A DNA stretch of 37,921 nt from a virus (taxonomy: Duplodnaviria > Heunggongvirae > Uroviricota > Caudoviricetes). The notes under the pieces were generated by a model, which saw only the letters and a list, made by a program, of their open reading frames with translations, had not been told where the DNA came from and did no database searches. Position 1 is the stretch's first letter; every line of letters starts with the position of its first letter. Positions 5,305 through 14,761 of this stretch are shown one piece after another. Location: IMG/VR virus record IMGVR_UViG_2713896908_000005; one strand, written 5' to 3'. The position numbers were made by a program, and so were the translations under genes.

Positions 5305-6831
5305 ATGAAAAAAGCCATAGCATATATGCGATTTTCATCACCAGGTCAGATGTCTGGCGACTCATTAAACCGACAGAGAAGACTTATTGCTGAATGGTTA
5401 AAGGTAAATGGTGATTATTATCTTGATACCATAACATATGAAGATTTAGGATTAAGTGCATTCAAAGGAAAGCATGCACAATCAGGAGCTTTTTCGGAAT
5501 TTTTAGATGCTATAGAGCATGGTTATATATTGCCAGGAACTACATTGTTAGTTGAAAGTCTGGACAGACTTTCAAGAGAAAAAGTCGGTGAAGCGATTGA
5601 ACGTCTGAAATTGATTTTGAATCACGGTATTGATGTTATAACTCTTTGCGACAATACAGTCTATAATATTGACTCTTTGAATGAGCCATATTCATTAATA
5701 AAAGCCATACTTATAGCACAAAGGGCAAATGAAGAAAGCGAGATAAAGTCAAGTCGGGTTAAATTATCATGGAAGAAAAAACGGCAGGATGCACTGGAAT
5801 CAGGTACGATTATGACGGCGTCTTGTCCGAGATGGCTCTCCTTAGATGACAAAAGAACGGCTTTTGTTCCAGACCCCGACAGGGTGAAAACTATTGAGCT
5901 AATTTTTAAACTCAGGATGGAAAGGCGCTCATTGAATGCAATAGCCAAGTATTTAAATGATCATGCTGTAAAGAATTTCTCAGGAAAAGAAAGTGCATGG
6001 GGACCTTCTGTAATTGAAAAATTATTAGCGAATAAAGCTCTGATAGGTATATGCGTACCTTCATATCGTGCAAGAGGGAAAGGGATAAGTGAAATCGCTG
6101 GCTATTATCCCAGAGTCATATCAGATGATTTGTTTTACGCTGTACAGGAAATTCGGTTGGCACCTTTTGGTATTAGCAATAGTAGCAAGAATCCTATGCT
6201 AATAAATCTACTTCGAACAGTTATGAAGTGTGAGGCTTGTGGTAATACCATGATTGTTCATGCGGTATCTGGAAGTTTGCATGGCTATTATGTTTGTCCG
6301 ATGAGAAGATTACATCGATGTGACAGGCCATCAATAAAAAGAGATTTGGTTGATTATAATATCATTAATGAATTGCTTTTTAATTGTAGCAAAATTCAAC
6401 CAGTTGAAAACAAGAAAGATGCTAATGAAACTTTAGAGTTAAAAATTATTGAGCTTCAGATGAAAATTAATAATTTAATCGTTGCATTGTCTGTCGCGCC
6501 TGAAGTTACCGCTATAGCAGAGAAAATAAGACTATTAGATAAGGAATTACGAAGGGCTTCGGTATCATTGAAAACTTTGAAGAGTAAAGGTGTAAATTCA
6601 TTCAGTGATTTTTATGCTATTGACTTAACCAGTAAAAATGGACGAGAGTTATGCCGTACACTTGCCTATAAAACATTCGAAAAAATCATAATTAATACGG
6701 ATAATAAAACCTGTGATATCTATTTTATGAATGGCATTGTTTTTAAACACTATCCTTTAATGAAAGTAATATCCGCCCAGCAGGCGATAAGTGCTCTCAA
6801 ATATATGGTTGATGGTGAGGTTTATTTTTGA
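5305..6831 (+). CDS. ybcK: large serine recombinase (YbcK-like)
   Basis: 508 aa; N-terminal resolvase-type catalytic domain (AIAYMRFSSPGQ with candidate nucleophile Ser, later LDRLSR), long C-terminal extension with Cys cluster (CEACGNT...YYVCPMRRLHRC) and coiled coil; AT-rich, follows emrE as in DLP12. Confidence 0.8.
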   Translation: MKKAIAYMRFSSPGQMSGDSLNRQRRLIAEWLKVNGDYYLDTITYEDLGLSAFKGKHAQSGAFSEFLDAIEHGYILPGTTLLVESLDRLSREKVGEAIERLKLILNHGIDVITLCDNTVYNIDSLNEPYSLIKAILIAQRANEESEIKSSRVKLSWKKKRQDALESGTIMTASCPRWLSLDDKRTAFVPDPDRVKTIELIFKLRMERRSLNAIAKYLNDHAVKNFSGKESAWGPSVIEKLLANKALIGICVPSYRARGKGISEIAGYYPRVISDDLFYAVQEIRLAPFGISNSSKNPMLINLLRTVMKCEACGNTMIVHAVSGSLHGYYVCPMRRLHRCDRPSIKRDLVDYNIINELLFNCSKIQPVENKKDANETLELKIIELQMKINNLIVALSVAPEVTAIAEKIRLLDKELRRASVSLKTLKSKGVNSFSDFYAIDLTSKNGRELCRTLAYKTFEKIIINTDNKTCDIYFMNGIVFKHYPLMKVISAQQAISALKYMVDGEVYF

Positions 6832-8682: not shown

Positions 8683-8852
8683 TGGCTACACCGCTTATTC
8701 GTGTCATGAACGGACACATCTACAGAGTATCAAATCGTCGTAAGCGTAAGCCTGAGCTGAAGCCATCCGAAATACCAACACTGCTCGGATATACCGCTAG
8801 CCTGGTTGATAAAAAATGGTTGCGACTGGCAGCAAGGAGGAATCATGGCTGA
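8682..8852 (+). CDS. ninE: NinE-like small protein
   Basis: 56-codon ORF below the track threshold: [56 protein letters not shown]; overlaps ninB stop and ybcO start; matches recalled DLP12 NinE. Confidence 0.55.
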   Translation: MATPLIRVMNGHIYRVSNRRKRKPELKPSEIPTLLGYTASLVDKKWLRLAARRNHG

Positions 8853-9135
8853 TTTGAGAAAAGCAGCGCGTGGTCGGGAATGCCAGGTAAGAATCCCTGG
8901 CGTATGTAATGGCAATTCTGAAACGTCTGTACTGGCACATATCCGGCTGGCTGGATTGTGCGGTACCGGTATCAAACCGCCAGACCTGGTTGCCACCATT
9001 GCATGTTCTGCCTGCCACGACGAAATCGACCGCCGCACACATTTTGTCGATGCTGCATATGCAAAAGAATGCGCGCTGGAAGGTATGGCGAGAACACAGG
9101 TTATCTGGCTGAAAGAGGGGGTTATTAAGGCGTGA
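8845..9135 (+). CDS. ybcO: YbcO-like nin-region protein (Cys/His-rich, putative nuclease)
   Basis: Start at internal ATG 8845 (AAGGAGG SD); [34 protein letters not shown]...[10 protein letters not shown] with conserved Cys/His/Asp cluster. Confidence 0.7.
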
Positions 9136-9494
9136 ATACCTACAGTATCACATTACCCTGGCCTCCGAGCAATAATCGCTATTACCGCCATAATCGCGGG
9201 CGCACGCACGTCAGTGCAGAGGGGCAGGCATACCGCGATAACGTCGCCCGAATCATTAAAAACGCAATGCTGGATATCGGCCTGGCTATGCCTGTGAAAA
9301 TCCGCATTGAGTGCCACATGCCGGATCGCCGTCGCCGTGACCTGGATAATCTGCAAAAAGCCGCTTTTGACGCACTCACTAAAGCAGGTTTCTGGCTGGA
9401 TGATGCTCAGGTCGTTGATTACCGCGTTGTGAAGATGCCTGTTACCAAAGGTGGGAGGCTGGAACTGACCATCACCGAAATGGGGAATGAATGA
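9132..9494 (+). CDS. rusA: Holliday-junction resolvase RusA
   Basis: 120-aa product [31 protein letters not shown]...[10 protein letters not shown] matches RusA as recalled; GTG start. Confidence 0.9.
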
Positions 9495-9631
9495 TGTTTG
9501 AGTTTAATATGGCAGAACTTCTTCGCCACCGCTGGGGGCGTCTGCGCTTATATCGTTTCCCCGGTTCTGTTTTGACCGATTACCGAATACTGAAGAATTA
9601 CGCCAAAACCCTGACAGGAGCAGGAGTATGA
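9491..9631 (+). CDS. ylcG: YlcG-like small protein (46 aa)
   Basis: ATG overlapping rusA stop; [46 protein letters not shown]; below ORF-track size cutoff. Confidence 0.55.
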
Positions 9632-9716
9632 AGTCAGAGATAACAATCAACTAATACTGTTTTGTTGATTTTTGCTTGTAATTGGCGTTCTGGTCTGATT
9701 TTTGTGGAGTAAGTTG

Positions 9717-10067
9717 ATGCGTGATATGTATGAAGTATTGGACCGCTGGGGAGCATGGGCTGCAGCAGATAACAGTGGCGTGGACTGGCAGCCGATAGCA
9801 GCAGGCTTCAAGGGGCTTTTACTTCATGGCAAAAAGTCCCGGATTCAGTGTGATGATGACGAAGGCATTATGATAGACAGTTGTGTGGCTCGGTTGAGAA
9901 AGTATAAACCAGAGGAATATGAGCTAATCATAGCTCACTTTGTCATTGGTATCTCATTACGCACTATTGCCAAGAAGAGAAGATGTTCAGATGGCACGAT
10001 TAGAAAGGAATTGCAAACTGCAATTGGTTTTGTAGAGGGGATTACGAGCGTTATGGCATGTAAATAA
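9717..10067 (+). CDS. late-gene antiterminator Q-like
   Basis: Start at ATG 9717 (GGAG SD); MRDMYEVLDRWGAWAA...IAAGFKGL...CSDGTIRKELQTA resembles the Q antiterminator family of DLP12/phage 82 type as recalled; lies between the nin and lysis regions. Confidence 0.75.
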   Translation: MRDMYEVLDRWGAWAAADNSGVDWQPIAAGFKGLLLHGKKSRIQCDDDEGIMIDSCVARLRKYKPEEYELIIAHFVIGISLRTIAKKRRCSDGTIRKELQTAIGFVEGITSVMACK

Positions 10068-10073
10068 AAGTTA

Positions 10074-10095
10074 AAAGCCACCGTAGTGGCTTTTA
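10074..10095. terminator. bidirectional intrinsic terminator-like hairpin immediately after Q
   Basis: AAAAGCCAC (10074-10082) cgta GTGGCTTTT (10087-10095): GC stem flanked by an A-tract on one side and a T-tract on the other. Confidence 0.6.
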
Positions 10096-10273
10096 ACTTT
10101 TTAGGATTGTGCAGGTAATGTTTTGTTCAATTTAGTAAAGAAGTTAGATTGGCTTGTTACAGTGCGTCGACTCTTTCCAGAAGTACTCAACTGAAAGAAA
10201 TCATTGATGCTTTTGGGTTGAGTTCTTTCATAGGCTTGCTTAAGTGACATGTGTTCCCCTTGTCTATTTGTTG

Positions 10274-11557
10274 CTATGACCGCGAAAAGTAGTGATGGTT
10301 CAGTTCTTTTGCAAAATAGTGCTTACGTTTAACCCAGATAAAACCATCAGCTTTAGAAATGATTGCAACATCTATGGGGCCTCCCACTGTTTCAGTATCA
10401 TCGGAGACCTTGCGCTTGAAAGCGGTTAAATTTACTAATGATTCAGCCATATAAGCTAAATCTTGCTTGGGTAAAAACTCGATCATATTTACGACTTTGT
10501 CAACATAGTTTTCTCGGACAAAGCTATCAATACGCCCCTTGCAATCGGAAACAGTTCTGCGCACTACATCAACTATAGCATCCTTAGCTCCTTCGATATC
10601 TGAAGTAGGCACCAAATCTGTGATTACTGAATCAATACCGTCAAGTAAATCGACGATAGAACGTTGATACTCAGCATGAAGATTTTGGATAAGATGTGAA
10701 CTAGCTCCTTGCATGAAAGCAGAAACTTCATCCTCTTGCGCAAAAGGAGTCACGCCGCAATTAGGAGTGATGCAGCACTTGTCAGCATCTGTAGTTTTCC
10801 TGATTTTATCATTAAAGAAGCCACAAACTTCATATGATAATACTTTAGGGTAATAGTCTTTATCGCCATAACCTGCAATCACAATCCCAGAGACGGAACC
10901 GATATCACTTTGCTTGCATATCATAGCTGCCAAAACATCACTAACTACTTTTGTCAACTGTGGAGTTATGGATATTGGATCAAAGTCACTAAACTTTTGA
11001 GCAATGATGCGTTGGGCAACTGATGAAGCATAGGTTTGGGCTGCTTGTTCATCATCCGGAGTAAAACCATCAAAGTAATTAATATCAGATAATTTTGTAA
11101 GGAGATCGTTGCAATAATTTGTAAGGTCTGTAACAAATTGATTCTTATTGAAGTTAACGAAATATGTTGGTTCGAGACCTTCAGAAAAAGCATCAACAAG
11201 CATGCTGAATACAATCTCGCTCAGGAAGTGATAAAGATGAGCCTCACGCATACCTGGTGTGATGATTGATTTAGCCGACTGTAGATAATTGAAGAAATCC
11301 TCAGCATATTCCTCCAAAGAGTCAAAACATTTAGAGCCTAAATCCTTTCTATAAGCCTTGATGATAAGCTCCCATGGAGCTGTGCAGAGATCACCAGTTC
11401 CATATACCATCAAACCTACAGGATGATGTTTAGTCAGAGCGAAAAGCTTTTCAGCGCCATTATAGATTTTATGTTTGCCGCCTCCAGAAATTGTTACAGC
11501 TGAATCTGCGGCTAAAGCTACTGCGGTCTTGTTAAATACGGCTATTTCTGCTGTCAT
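10274..11557 (-). CDS. uncharacterised 427-aa cargo protein on the opposite strand between Q and the lysis cassette
   Basis: Long minus-strand ORF, markedly AT-rich relative to flanking phage genes; own sigma70-like promoter and a terminator hairpin downstream; no signal peptide, no Walker A, no family recognised by eye. Confidence 0.8.
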   Translation of the reverse strand: MTAEIAVFNKTAVALAADSAVTISGGGKHKIYNGAEKLFALTKHHPVGLMVYGTGDLCTAPWELIIKAYRKDLGSKCFDSLEEYAEDFFNYLQSAKSIITPGMREAHLYHFLSEIVFSMLVDAFSEGLEPTYFVNFNKNQFVTDLTNYCNDLLTKLSDINYFDGFTPDDEQAAQTYASSVAQRIIAQKFSDFDPISITPQLTKVVSDVLAAMICKQSDIGSVSGIVIAGYGDKDYYPKVLSYEVCGFFNDKIRKTTDADKCCITPNCGVTPFAQEDEVSAFMQGASSHLIQNLHAEYQRSIVDLLDGIDSVITDLVPTSDIEGAKDAIVDVVRRTVSDCKGRIDSFVRENYVDKVVNMIEFLPKQDLAYMAESLVNLTAFKRKVSDDTETVGGPIDVAIISKADGFIWVKRKHYFAKELNHHYFSRS

Positions 11558-11572
11558 TTTTTACATAGGGTT

Positions 11573-11600
11573 TATATATTGTGTAATGAGAAAAATACAA
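11573..11600 (-). promoter_or_regulatory. putative sigma70 promoter of the 427-aa gene
   Basis: On the minus strand: TTGTAT (rc 11595-11600) -N16- TATATA (rc 11573-11578), about 15 nt upstream of the ATG at 11557; no strong SD. Confidence 0.4.
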
Positions 11601-11666
11601 AAAAATTAACGCGTACGCAAAAATTCTTGTAATCTGTTAAGAGTGGTTGCTTCGCCACACAGCTTA

Positions 11667-11696
11667 AACCCGCCGTCGAGCGGGTTTTGTCGTTTC
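11667..11696 (+). terminator. tR'-like intrinsic terminator hairpin upstream of the holin gene
   Basis: AACCCGC (11667-11673) cgtcga GCGGGTT (11680-11686) followed by TTTTGTCGTTT; position corresponds to where lambdoid phages carry pR'/qut/tR'. Confidence 0.45.
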
Positions 11697-11839
11697 TGGG
11701 CTTTGGTATTCGTTGGGCTTGGTCTATCTAGCTCTTATCCATTGGCTCGGCTTCTTTTACGTTTCCGCTTCTGATTTGCGGTTCGTGGTACTCCCTCAAT
11801 TTGCACCTCTTGTATCGGCGAGGTGAGAGATAACTACAA

Positions 11840-12166
11840 ATGCCTCATAACCCAAATACCTGGCTGGAGTTGGTCCAGAGCTGGTGGCGTGGAGACACAC
11901 CGCTGGGCGCAGTGATTATGTCGATTGTTATGGCTGGTTTGCGCATTGCCTATTTTGGCGGTGGTGGCGGCTGGAAGCGAAAAACACTCGAAATTCTACT
12001 CTGTGGCGCTCTGACGCTGACTTTTGCATCCGCTCTTGAGTATGTCGGATGGCCTAAATCACTATCTGTTGCCATTGGTGGTGGGGTGGGGCTGATCGGT
12101 GTTGATGCTATTCGTGGGGCTGCAATGAGAGTAATCGGTAACAAGTTTGGTGGCTCTAAGGAGTAA
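11840..12166 (+). CDS. holin (three predicted TM helices)
   Basis: 108 aa; hydrophobic segments LGAVIMSIVMAGLRIAYF, LEILLCGALTLTFASAL, LSVAIGGGVGLIGVDAI and a charged C-terminus; immediately precedes the endolysin. Confidence 0.65.
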   Translation: MPHNPNTWLELVQSWWRGDTPLGAVIMSIVMAGLRIAYFGGGGGWKRKTLEILLCGALTLTFASALEYVGWPKSLSVAIGGGVGLIGVDAIRGAAMRVIGNKFGGSKE

Positions 12167-12169
12167 TTT

Positions 12170-12646
12170 ATGCAGGTACTAAATTCCCAGCGTAAAGCTT
12201 TCCTCGATATGGTGGCATGGTCAGAAGGAACGGATAACGGGCGACAACCGACACGTAACCACGGTTATGATGTTATTGTTGGCGGCGAACTGTTCACTGA
12301 TTACTCCGATCACCCTCGCAAACTTGTCACGCTAAACCCCAAACTCAAATCAACAGCCGCCGGGCGTTATCAGCTTCTTTCACGCTGGTGGGATGCTTAC
12401 CGTAAACAGCTTGGTTTGAAAGACTTCTCCCCCAAAAGCCAGGACGCAGTGGCATTGCAGCAGATTAAAGATCGTGGCGCTTTACCGATGATTGATCGCG
12501 GTGATATCCGTCAGGCTATCGATCGTTGCAGCAATATCTGGGCGTCATTACCCGGCGCTGGTTACGGTCAGTATGAACATAAAATCGGTGACCTGATTGC
12601 CCGATTCAAAGAGGCTGGCGGGGTGGTAAATGACGTTGAGCTATAA
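12170..12646 (+). CDS. R: endolysin, lambda R-type lytic transglycosylase
   Basis: 158 aa; NSQRKAFLDMVAWSEGTDNGRQPTRNHGYDVIVGGELFTDYSDHPRK closely matches lambda R as recalled. Confidence 0.9.
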   Translation: MQVLNSQRKAFLDMVAWSEGTDNGRQPTRNHGYDVIVGGELFTDYSDHPRKLVTLNPKLKSTAAGRYQLLSRWWDAYRKQLGLKDFSPKSQDAVALQQIKDRGALPMIDRGDIRQAIDRCSNIWASLPGAGYGQYEHKIGDLIARFKEAGGVVNDVEL

Positions 12647-13091
12647 GCTGGTTATCGTTGCTTTCTTCGTTACTGTCATTGGTTCTTTCATCTGTTCAGT
12701 GAATCGTTACCACAATAAAGCCATTGAATACAAAATGCAGCGTGATGAGAATGCTATGGCATTAGATTCGGCTATGGCGACCATCTTTGATATGCAGAAG
12801 CGTCAACGTGACGTAGCAGAACTTGACGCCAGATACACAAAGGAGCTTGCTGATGCTAATGCGACTATCGAAAGTCTCCGTGCTGATGTTTCTTCTGGGC
12901 GTAAGCGCCTGCAAGTCGCCGCCACCTGTGCAAAATCAACGACCAGAGCCAGCGGCATGGGCGATGGAGAAAGCCCAGGACTTACAGCAGATGCTGAATT
13001 CAATTATTACCGTCTCCGAAGTGGAATCGACAGGATAACCGCACAGGTTAATTACCTACAGGAATACATCAGAACTCAATGCATGAATTAA
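12630..13091 (+). CDS. Rz: i-spanin Rz
   Basis: 153 aa; N-terminal TM helix, central QRDVAELDARYTKELADA matches lambda Rz as recalled; overlaps R stop. Confidence 0.85.
   Translation: MTLSYKLVIVAFFVTVIGSFICSVNRYHNKAIEYKMQRDENAMALDSAMATIFDMQKRQRDVAELDARYTKELADANATIESLRADVSSGRKRLQVAATCAKSTTRASGMGDGESPGLTADAEFNYYRLRSGIDRITAQVNYLQEYIRTQCMN
12853..13038 (+). CDS. Rz1: o-spanin Rz1 (lipoprotein embedded in +1 frame of Rz)
   Basis: Start at ATG 12853 with AGGAG SD; signal peptide ending in a lipobox-like LGVSAC, followed by proline-rich KSPPPVQNQRPEPAAW; fully embedded in Rz. Confidence 0.7.
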   Translation: MLMRLSKVSVLMFLLGVSACKSPPPVQNQRPEPAAWAMEKAQDLQQMLNSIITVSEVESTG

Positions 13092-13273: not shown

Positions 13274-13646
13274 AACTGCTCTGTTATACACTGAAGTTAA
13301 CGCAGCGGCTAAGCACTCAGCAGCAGGACACCGTGTAGAGGCAACGGAAGAGGCCAGAAATATACAGCAGACTATTAACCATATTCCTGGTGACTCTGTT
13401 GAGCGCGGTATGCATAAGAAATACAAACGTACAATTTGAAGTGGTATATTTTTCTTGTTAGTAGATGAATATAATATACCACACAGAATACGATATAATT
13501 ATTGCTCATGCTTACCTAAATATGAAAAACAATAAAGTTATAAGTAGACAAGTGTTTTGTTACTTTTAATAATTGATGTGATGTATATATTAAGATTGAA
13601 AAATTTAATCATTCTTTCCACATATAAATTAAGTGGTTCCCTTAGC

Positions 13647-13675
13647 TTGTCATTTTTGATGATAAGTGAGAGAAT
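13647..13675 (+). promoter_or_regulatory. putative promoter of the three-gene AT-rich cassette
   Basis: TTGTCA (13647-13652) -N17- GAGAAT (13670-13675), preceded by TG (extended -10-like); 25 nt upstream of ATG 13701. Confidence 0.3.
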
Positions 13676-13700
13676 ATGAACATTATATGATGGAGATAAT

Positions 13701-14012
13701 ATGTCAAACATAAAAATCAAACAAGCTATTGAAAAGATTGCGGAGTTCAGAGCAGCATCTGCTGCGATGGCTGATGCTCACATGGTTCTTATTACAGATC
13801 TATTGAACTCAATTGAGGATATCCGCAAAAACTCTGGTGATAATCTCTCTGAGTTTGAAAAAGGACAGGTTGCTCTCTACATAAAAATTAGCCCAGTTGT
13901 GAAAAATGGAATTTCGAGTATTGAAAAATATAATGAGTCTTTAAGTTCAGACTATGTTGAGGCTATGAACTCCTTATCTAAAATTGCGGGAGGGAATTCA
14001 AATGTCGATTGA
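13701..14012 (+). CDS. cassette gene A: hypothetical 103-aa acidic helical protein
   Basis: ATG with GGAGA SD; AT-rich; stop overlaps start of gene B by 11 nt. Confidence 0.6.
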   Translation: MSNIKIKQAIEKIAEFRAASAAMADAHMVLITDLLNSIEDIRKNSGDNLSEFEKGQVALYIKISPVVKNGISSIEKYNESLSSDYVEAMNSLSKIAGGNSNVD

Positions 14013-14388
14013 AGATGTTGGAAGCATCCTTGATAGATTAAAAGTAGCCAGGATCGAAAATAAAAAAATTGAAGAGTCAGCTGGAAAAGCAGAGGAAAAT
14101 GCTGTTAACTCTAAGCATACTGATGGTAAAACACGAAGCGCCTTAACTATTACGTTTCTCTGGTTCTTTTTTTTCCTTCTTATTTTTAGCTGTCTTTTTG
14201 TTCTTTGGTATAATAATTCTGTTGTGAATTGGGCTTTAGAGTTAAAGAGCAAAGGTGTTGATGATTACGTTCAATATTTAAAGCCACTCGAGCTGGAAAA
14301 GGTATTGTCAATAATGATTACTGCCCTTGGTACTTCATTAGGATTTATAATTGGGTATTATTTTAAGGATAAAGAAAATCATTCTTAA
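14002..14388 (+). CDS. cassette gene B: hypothetical 128-aa membrane protein with two predicted TM helices
   Basis: Start taken at ATG 14002 (GGGAGGG SD) rather than 13984; hydrophobic segments ALTITFLWFFFFLLIFSCLFVLWY and VLSIMITALGTSLGFIIGYYF. Confidence 0.6.
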   Translation: MSIEDVGSILDRLKVARIENKKIEESAGKAEENAVNSKHTDGKTRSALTITFLWFFFFLLIFSCLFVLWYNNSVVNWALELKSKGVDDYVQYLKPLELEKVLSIMITALGTSLGFIIGYYFKDKENHS

Positions 14389-14433
14389 TATAGAGTTATC
14401 TCTAAAGATAACGAATTTTAATAGGAGGGCAGA

Positions 14434-14736
14434 ATGTCTGAACTGAATTATGAAGCAATAGGTCGCTGCAAAATCCTTAATGAAAAGATCAAAGATCTTC
14501 ATGCTGAACGAATGAAAGCTATTGGTGATTTACGTACTGCTGTCTATGCCCTTCATCAGAAAGGGAATGTAAACCTCATCCCACCAGAAATTGTTGAATT
14601 CAACCCCCAATCGCTTACATCCCTTGTAGAGAAGATTGGTCACTATGATGGTGAGCTGATGCGAGCTGTACATGAGTACAACAACTGGTGTGTAGAAGCA
14701 GGCGAGAAACCCGTAAAACTTATAAAGCTAGACTGA
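14434..14736 (+). CDS. cassette gene C: hypothetical 100-aa protein
   Basis: ATG with GGAGGG SD; AT-rich; followed by terminator hairpin. Confidence 0.6.
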   Translation: MSELNYEAIGRCKILNEKIKDLHAERMKAIGDLRTAVYALHQKGNVNLIPPEIVEFNPQSLTSLVEKIGHYDGELMRAVHEYNNWCVEAGEKPVKLIKLD

Positions 14737-14761
14737 AACAACAAATTTATGCAAATCATTA

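Follow-up and report, generated by a model that had tools for sequence, protein, structure and literature searches.

A putative late promoter and subtype-specific candidate Q-binding palindrome separated from the antiterminator gene Q by an antisense cargo cassette in a lambdoid prophage

The late regulatory cassette of the prophage studied here, comprising the late promoter pR' with a start near A11642, the Q-binding element qut and a proximal terminator, very probably occupies positions 11596-11695 of a 37,921-nt stretch of Caudoviricetes DNA (IMG/VR record IMGVR_UViG_2713896908_000005; the whole stretch is called the window below). The promoter activity of pR' in this phage is predicted from sequence comparison. 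The control module itself is unremarkable, a 933W-type PR' homologue of a known kind; the noteworthy parts are the cargo hotspot that it borders, the strong antisense bias of that cargo and the palindromes that change with the Q subtype. The original prediction had offered two placements for the late control elements, either at 10100-10270, directly after Q, or at about 11600-11700, which would leave a cargo gene between Q and its site of action. The second placement is supported by homology to the mapped PR' of phage VT2-Sakai, by linkage of the promoter motif to Q genes of the PF06530 family and by the subtype-varying palindrome.

Table 1 Features of the Q-to-lysis region of the window
Feature	Positions	Strand	Remarks
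YbcO-like nuclease gene	8806-9135		Upstream of Q
rusA	9132-9494		Between the YbcO-like nuclease gene and Q
Antiterminator gene Q, Q21/Q933W family	9717-10067	+	116 aa from ATG at 9717; PF06530
Low-GC cargo cassette	~10032-11595		Edges are the conserved Q body and the conserved pR' module
Perfect 16-bp hairpin	10066-10101		Putative bidirectional terminator between Q and the convergent cargo operon
49-aa ORF 3' of the cargo gene	10101-10250	-	From the ORF list; uncertain whether a real gene
Cargo gene, 427 aa	10274-11557	-	Proteasome-beta-like fold; candidate defence gene
A-rich tract 5' of the -35	11596-11605	+	Putatively UP-element-like
Candidate -35 hexamer TTAACG	11606-11611	+	18-bp spacer; poorly defined
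Palindrome GCGTACGC	11611-11618	+	Candidate Q-binding element (qut); followed by AAAAA
-10 hexamer TAATCT	11630-11635	+	Counterpart of Sakai TATCAT
Conserved start-site block TAAGAGTGGTTGCTTCGCCAC	11638-11658	+	Predicted start A11642
Intrinsic-terminator hairpin with interrupted U run, UUUUGUCGUUU	11666-11695	+	Putative tR'
Holin	11840-12166	+	PF05106
Endolysin	12170-12646	+	Same-position gene annotated R/lysin in SfII
Rz	12630-13091	+	PF03245

The structural genes come after those for the holin, endolysin and Rz, all on the + strand, and a non-coding stretch of 282 bp lies between the cargo gene and the holin gene (Table 1). The endolysin gene gave no Pfam match. The GC content falls to 36-42% from ~9950 to 11600, as against ~50-55% in both flanks, and similarity searches found 11596-11839 to be common to many lambdoid phages but 10068-11595 not. 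Homology break points set the edges of the low-GC cassette between Q and pR', 1.5 kb in length, which we propose to be a backward-facing insert acquired by horizontal transfer.

In VT2-Sakai, a phage of the 933W type, the sequence across and beyond the Q stop codon (TTTACGATCGTAAAAATCTGCATATCATGATAAGAGTGGTTACATTGCCACGCAGTCGAACCCGCCGATGCGCGGGTTTTTTT) aligns base by base with positions 11606-11691 of the window (TTAACGCGTACGCAAAAATTCTTGTAATCTGTTAAGAGTGGTTGCTTCGCCACACAGCTTAAACCCGCCGTCGAGCGGGTTTT). The Sakai PR' start has been mapped by dRNA-seq, 258 nt before the 3' end seen by Term-seq, and its transcript is cut by RNase E at +173, between GU and AUU (Sy et al. 2020, PMC7547250). We anchored this start by internal distances, the coordinates of the paper referring to NC_002695.1 and our comparison sequence being NC_002695.2; the 258-nt length and the +173 cut both point to position 2957 of the Sakai locus (L005), an A seven nucleotides after TATCAT. 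Transferred to the homologous base of the window, the start would be A11642, seven nucleotides after TAATCT. It is because of this homology to a promoter with a mapped start that pR' is placed at 11606-11642.

The individual promoter elements are conserved to different degrees. Of 71 distinct homologous promoters, 64 have TAnnnT at exactly -12 to -7; an A-rich run 5' of the -35 is present in nearly all homologous promoters, and TTAACG aligns near the TTTACG of the Sakai and DLP12-type promoters, whose spacers are 16 bp. A consensus promoter scan did not call pR' at 11606-11635, where the -35 is weak and the spacer 18 bp; the scan returned two promoter-like sites compared with 6.1 in shuffled sequences, that is, fewer than chance. 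A scan match on the + strand at 11551-11580 (CTGTCA-18-TATATT) was rejected as a promoter, for it lies in cassette-specific DNA and is without conservation. The composite motif at 11638-11658 occurs once in the window with three mismatches allowed (0.04 chance matches expected). Its core block is invariant in the IMG/VR sample, partly by construction, since the block served as the search pattern there.

Two candidate sigma-dependent pause elements, neither of them clear-cut, lie near the start. The better one, AAGAGT (11639-11644), spans -3 to +3, a position that is unusual for such an element, and its conservation is partly forced by the search pattern; the other, TACTTC at +7 to +12, varies among relatives, with A, T or G at +8. 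The window itself carries G at this site (11649, changing TTAC to TTGC), where 127 other IMG/VR and phage segments have A, among them the closest relatives that share its cargo. We considered this G as a disabling mutation of the pause element and rejected that reading on account of the variability of the site; the G is probably tolerated, since loci from Serratia (L158) and Edwardsiella (L196) have it too. Likewise, a 5' mini-hairpin at +2 to +17 suggested by single-sequence folding was discarded for want of covariation in 40 diverse leaders, in which 81% of its cells were paired, compared with 80.3% in shuffles, and no double changes occurred; RNAalifold on 40 diverse leaders predicted no structure at these positions. 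An Rfam scan of 9500-12300 returned no credible family, the best matches (E 0.12 and 0.64) scoring far below their gathering thresholds.

The product of Q matches Pfam PF06530 with an E value of 5.3e-44 and, distantly, the Q21 structures 6P18 and 6JNX (E 0.007); it is 44% identical to the VT2-Sakai Q and 85-97% identical to the Qs of its own, window-type cluster. DNA homology to related Q genes ends at 10031, which leaves 36 nt (10032-10067) up to and including the stop codon, so the last ~12 Q codons would come from each cargo cassette; Q C-termini vary from cassette to cassette. We examined the linkage between Q and the promoter motif in two samples. For the motif-first sample, IMG/VR was scanned for TAAGAGTGGTTRCNTNGNCAC, and the resulting 120 loci made 130 together with further motif-bearing loci and the window. 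A PF06530 Q gene lies upstream on the same strand in 108 of these 130 loci; in 21 of the 22 others the available upstream DNA does not exceed ~2 kb. In this sample the spacing between Q stop and motif has a bimodal distribution (5-40 bp in 26 loci, 626-2461 bp in 82). The Q-first sample consisted of 80 Enterobacterales Q loci, one genome per species, with up to two mismatches allowed in the motif. Here the motif was found downstream of Q in 57 loci, adjacent in three and at 292-2918 bp in 54, and several of the remaining 23 visibly have more diverged versions of it. The agreement of both samples therefore ties the motif to the PF06530 Q family with or without intervening cargo. In the cargo-free arrangement the promoter abuts Q: the motif starts -3 to 40 bp past the Q stop in 29 such loci, among them Q types just 46-59% identical to the Q of the window.

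Qs were then grouped at 80% identity, and the -40 to -13 promoter region was compared group by group. A short palindrome occupies a fixed position in 11 Q clusters, with a sequence particular to the Q subtype, and precedes an A/T-rich run that usually consists of A's (loci L012-L212). The palindrome is TTTACG(A/T)(T/A)CGTAAA in the 933W and DLP12 Q type, the 8-bp GCGTACGC at -31 to -24 in the type of the window, GCGGTCCGC in a third type and TGTTATAACA, TGGAATTCCA and ATTCGTTACGAAT in further types. The Q-first sample shows the same pattern, and the predicted DNA-binding helices of the Q subtypes change in parallel with the palindromes. GCGTACGC occurs once in the window, and each of the 20 loci with a window-type Q has it, one in the form ATGCGTACGC with the core kept. 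The centre of the palindrome lies 27.5 bp before the start both in Sakai (L005 2923-2936) and in the window. Because it differs between Q subtypes, as a Q-binding site should, it is likely that GCGTACGC is the Q-binding element (qut), of an inverted-repeat type. The subtype-specific palindromes thus make a testable prediction of Q-binding specificity, including that of the clinically relevant Q933W group.

These data bear on the first of the two original placements, in which pR' and qut lie at 10100-10270 and polymerase modified by Q crosses the 427-aa gene in antisense on its way to the lysis genes. The late promoter does stand immediately after Q in lambda, in 933W and in the 29 cargo-free loci, and a hairpin follows Q in the window too. 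However, the scan found no + strand promoter-like site in 10068-10273, and neither the palindrome nor a copy of the start-site motif is present at 10100-10270, which is low-GC cassette DNA bearing a minus-strand ORF. This stretch has a homologue after other Q genes solely in loci with the same cargo, whereas the true homologue of the post-Q promoter sits at 11606-11691. We consider a late promoter directly after Q highly improbable in this prophage. We attach equally little weight to the idea that 11596-11695 does no more than provide a shared arm for recombination, or a promoter for the divergent cargo genes, the late genes being served by readthrough from an early promoter. The segment does border every cassette, cargo transcription must start beside it, and the A-rich DNA 5' of the -35 could contain minus-strand promoter elements. 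Yet the same segment is present beside Q even where cargo is absent, the mapped Sakai start lies in the homologous segment and is directed rightward, and the palindrome follows the Q subtype and not the cargo type.

If pR' lies at 11606-11642, the next element downstream is the hairpin that the original prediction had placed at 11667-11696. This hairpin is real and consists of AAACCCGC-CGTCGA-GCGGGTTT at 11666-11687, followed by TGTCGTTTC. It was the top terminator-like match of the scan, 144 bp before the holin ATG at 11840, although the match alone is weak evidence because the scan returned six such sites with 2.6 expected. Of 62 distinct homologous leaders, 57 have a GC-rich hairpin with a T run that starts between +24 and +37 and is complete by +61, and the diverged members form it from several unrelated stem sequences; that the hairpin is kept despite unrelated stems argues for selection on a terminator-like structure. 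In the terminator scan, 11666-11695 is the sole candidate between pR' and the holin, and the complete genome records of SfII and SfIV have an identical hairpin and U run, again as the sole candidate.

How far this hairpin alone restrains the late genes is less certain. In Sakai, a 258-nt transcript is made from the native PR' without Q, and the tR' of that study is a second Sakai terminator, which is lacking in the window (PMC7547250). The homologous proximal hairpin is therefore leaky in Sakai, where PR' transcripts pass it without Q and reach +258. It could accordingly be argued that pR' is where we place it but that 11666-11691 is leaky and acts mainly as a pause, RNA-stability or leader element, with the late genes held off by Rho or by weakness of the promoter. 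The interrupted U run of the window and the finding of no second terminator before the holin by the scan are in line with this, but the retention of hairpin and T run at the same position across diverged members and the SfII and SfIV arrangement are not, and we regard such a role as unlikely. Given the leaky Sakai hairpin and the interruption in its own U run (UUUUGUCGUUU), 11666-11691 may nevertheless be a partial terminator, with further control, for example by Rho, in the 150-nt leader.

A mosaic junction at 11688/11689 falls inside the U run of this hairpin. Over 9719-11688 the window is matched at 97.5% by nine E. coli genomes carrying this cargo, which diverge beyond that point and continue with TTTTTTTGTACC and then a late region of the methylase/tRNA type; the window continues with TGTCGTTTC and then a holin region of the SfII type, and its U run is thereby weaker and interrupted.

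The other hairpin of the original prediction, at 10074-10095 after Q, also exists and proved to be the GC-rich core of the 16-bp stem listed in Table 1, whose loop is 4 nt and whose ends reach into the Q stop codon (10065-10067) on one side and up to the stop of the 49-aa minus-strand ORF (10101) on the other. The terminator scan missed it because its T run lies within the long stem. Folding gave -20.4 kcal/mol for the + strand (z -5.35, equalled by none of 200 shuffles) and -22.7 kcal/mol for the - strand (z -8.07), and a compensatory change from T-A to C-G at 10071/10096 distinguishes the window from its nearest E. coli relative, H3. With a GC core and A and T runs on both sides in both directions, 10066-10101 fits a two-way terminator that would end the cargo transcript and stop unmodified rightward transcription.

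We propose the following mechanism. Q would be produced from early rightward transcription, and RNA polymerase would start at a sigma-70 promoter, pR', made up of TTAACG, an 18-bp spacer and TAATCT, with initiation at about A11642. The qut would consist of two parts, GCGTACGC at -31 to -24 and a pause signal within the conserved sequence surrounding +1, and here Q could act in trans on polymerase newly started at pR'. The modified polymerase would then read through the hairpin at 11666-11691 and reach the lysis and morphogenesis genes. The start region of the cargo cassette would adjoin pR', the two diverging back to back, and next to the Q stop codon the 16-bp hairpin, working in both directions, would terminate the cargo operon. 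With its own start region and this hairpin, the cargo could be expressed in the lysogen without depending on either phage operon; its orientation allows expression there without drive from the late operon. The scan called no minus-strand cargo promoter, and by eye we noticed only weak candidates (TTGTAT ... TATAAA) at ~11570-11600.

In this arrangement the cargo is divergent from pR', since it runs leftward from 11557 and pR' rightward from ~11642. The original prediction had the cargo convergent with late transcription in either case, which is wrong under the placement supported here. It had also proposed that the cargo is silenced during lytic growth; interference is still conceivable, but through the early rightward transcript and not the late one. 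Early rightward transcription through Q would converge on the cargo, so that lytic interference is possible, and antitermination-modified early transcription could cross the cargo in lytic growth.

Among the closest known systems is PR'-tR' of the Stx phages 933W and VT2-Sakai (Sp5), the source of StxS RNA, whose Q belongs to the same family. Sakai and the window share the homologous -10 position, the start-site block (TAAGAGTGGTTAC in Sakai), the proximal hairpin and the distance from palindrome to start. In contrast to the window, cargo is absent from this place in Sakai and the promoter reaches into the 3' end of Q; the Sakai palindrome is TTTACGATCGTAAA instead of GCGTACGC, and the Sakai leader is longer by 200 nt, with a second terminator at +258 and the StxS small-RNA part. 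The homology with the window ends at the first hairpin, at ~+50, and the distal StxS part is absent from the window: we found there neither a 258-nt leader whose 3' 74 nt form an Hfq-binding RNA at a distal terminator nor an Rfam match.

In phage 21 (pR'21; 6P18, 6JNX), where Q is of the same Pfam family, the Q element likewise lies inside the promoter, upstream of the -10. By analogy, Q of the window would be expected to load on promoter-proximal paused polymerase and to block formation of the terminator hairpin. Q21 is 46 residues longer than the Q of the window. Q21 reads TGAGCA repeated directly, the key C:G pairs lying at -21 and -13 (PMC6606751), whereas the candidate site of the window is an inverted repeat centred at about -27.5; as Q21, the only solved member, reads a direct repeat, an inverted repeat would be a variation. 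The lambda pR'-qut-tR' system (6S RNA) follows the same logic, with a constitutive promoter that contains the Q site, a pause signal resembling a -10 close to +1, and a terminator upstream of gene S. Over 18 nt, the lambda leader AACGATGGGTTAATTCGC (44587-44604, L009) strikingly resembles AAGAGTGG-TTACTTCGC (window 11639-11656), and the AAGAGT of the window family resembles lambda AACGAT-GGG; this likeness may reflect shared polymerase/sigma pause signals, or chance. Unlike the window, lambda has a Q of an unrelated family (PF03589), no gene between Q and pR' and its terminator at +194 instead of ~+50. Phages PA-2 and DLP12 and the 434B isolate share the layout of the window, with a backward-facing non-phage gene, the lc/nmpC porin, between a PF06530 Q and the same promoter-hairpin segment, upstream of the holin, but differ in the porin cargo, in Q subtype and palindrome, and in their S21-type lysis genes.

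This layout recurs widely. Q and the late promoter are separated by 0.3-2.9 kb with cargo between them in 136 related loci, and Stx1_499, Stx2a_1447, SfII, cdtI and mEp460 share it as well. The gap ORFs of at least 80 aa in the 136 loci fall into at least 72 protein clusters, 68 of the 72 confined to the minus strand, and 127 of the 136 gaps contain antisense ORFs only (76 of 82 in IMG/VR and 51 of 54 in genomes). The commonest occupant is the lc/nmpC porin (34 of the 82 IMG/VR loci). Among the others are Kiwa KwaA/KwaB, the PADLOC candidates PDC-S20, PDC-M53A/B and PDC-S42, and a PDC-M68A-like HNH protein, and Kiwa is found at the same gap in the RefSeq annotation of E. coli genomes too. Exceptions in the sense orientation are a 214-aa protein in five loci (L123 at ~1179 (+) and four similar ones), all with a Q of the TGTTATAACA type, and a 197-aa protein (L102).

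P2-like phages and P4-like satellites have defence hotspots (Rousset et al. 2022; Vassallo et al. 2022) that likewise occupy a fixed position, flanked by conserved phage genes, and hold alternative small cassettes, known defence systems among them. These hotspots differ from the Q-to-pR' gap in phage group and position, and the flanks of the gap are a regulator gene and its own DNA target; the cargo here is also nearly always antisense, unlike that of the P2 and P4 hotspots. We found no explicit description of a Q-to-pR' hotspot in the literature searched, which included Zhang et al. 2018 (PMC6266700), a study that reported Stx prophages whose post-Q region lacks the reference pR' site. Several consequences follow for work on these prophages. 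In the group that includes Stx1_499 and Stx2a_1447, the late promoter cannot be assumed to lie directly after Q, and reporter or PCR designs that use the DNA just 3' of Q as pR' would capture cargo. The gap is also a rich source of candidate defence genes, and an easily searched one because both flanks are recognisable.

The cargo of the window has several features of a prophage insert or defence cassette: its composition is foreign, it appears to carry its own terminator, its content is variable and known defence genes occupy the same place in relatives. The 427-aa product falls in phrog_5990, and of its more than 6000 homologues none is named; searches against Pfam, PADLOC and PDB sequences gave no match. 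T2, D18, K30 and K37 are invariant in the family, which also has a conserved C-terminal GGPxDVAxISK. In the AlphaFold2 model (pLDDT 82.8), two long helical insertions split the fold. Every top Foldseek match in the PDB is a subunit of the 20S proteasome, in most cases beta (E 2.6e-4, target TM ~0.55); Anbu stands further down the list. The model thus points to a proteasome-beta/Ntn-hydrolase fold, with an alpha-beta-beta-alpha sandwich, a predicted N-terminal Thr nucleophile and equivalents of Asp17 and Lys33. Homologues lie after the primase of a P4-like element in Serratia (L217-L220) and beside a type I restriction-modification system in Vibrio (L213-L216), and by association with these neighbours a role in defence is plausible. 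The protein of the 49-aa ORF is identical in E. coli H3, with one synonymous difference in the DNA, and is not annotated there; it matched no Pfam, PADLOC or PHROG family.

Taking the gap, its contents and the palindromes together, we offer a broader and tentative proposal, which we hold to be possible but rather doubtful as a whole: that the interval between PF06530 Q genes and the late promoter in Enterobacterales lambdoid prophages is a dedicated exchange site for anti-phage and surface-modifying cassettes, with two constrained homology arms and cargo nearly always antisense; that the split proteasome-beta-like Thr-hydrolase homologue is a new single-gene defence system; and that, in contrast to Q21 with its direct repeats, Qs of the 933W, DLP12 and window group read an inverted repeat centred at about -27.5.

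Two further features of the window were observed outside this region. A second low-GC island (27-41% GC) lies at 13400-14750 between Rz and an HNH endonuclease gene; it has three + strand ORFs of 103, 134 and 100 aa that match no Pfam family, and it occupies the position of another accessory-gene site. A large serine recombinase of 508 aa, with Resolvase, Recombinase and zinc-ribbon domains, is encoded at 5305-6831 (+), within the early/replication-side region of the prophage.
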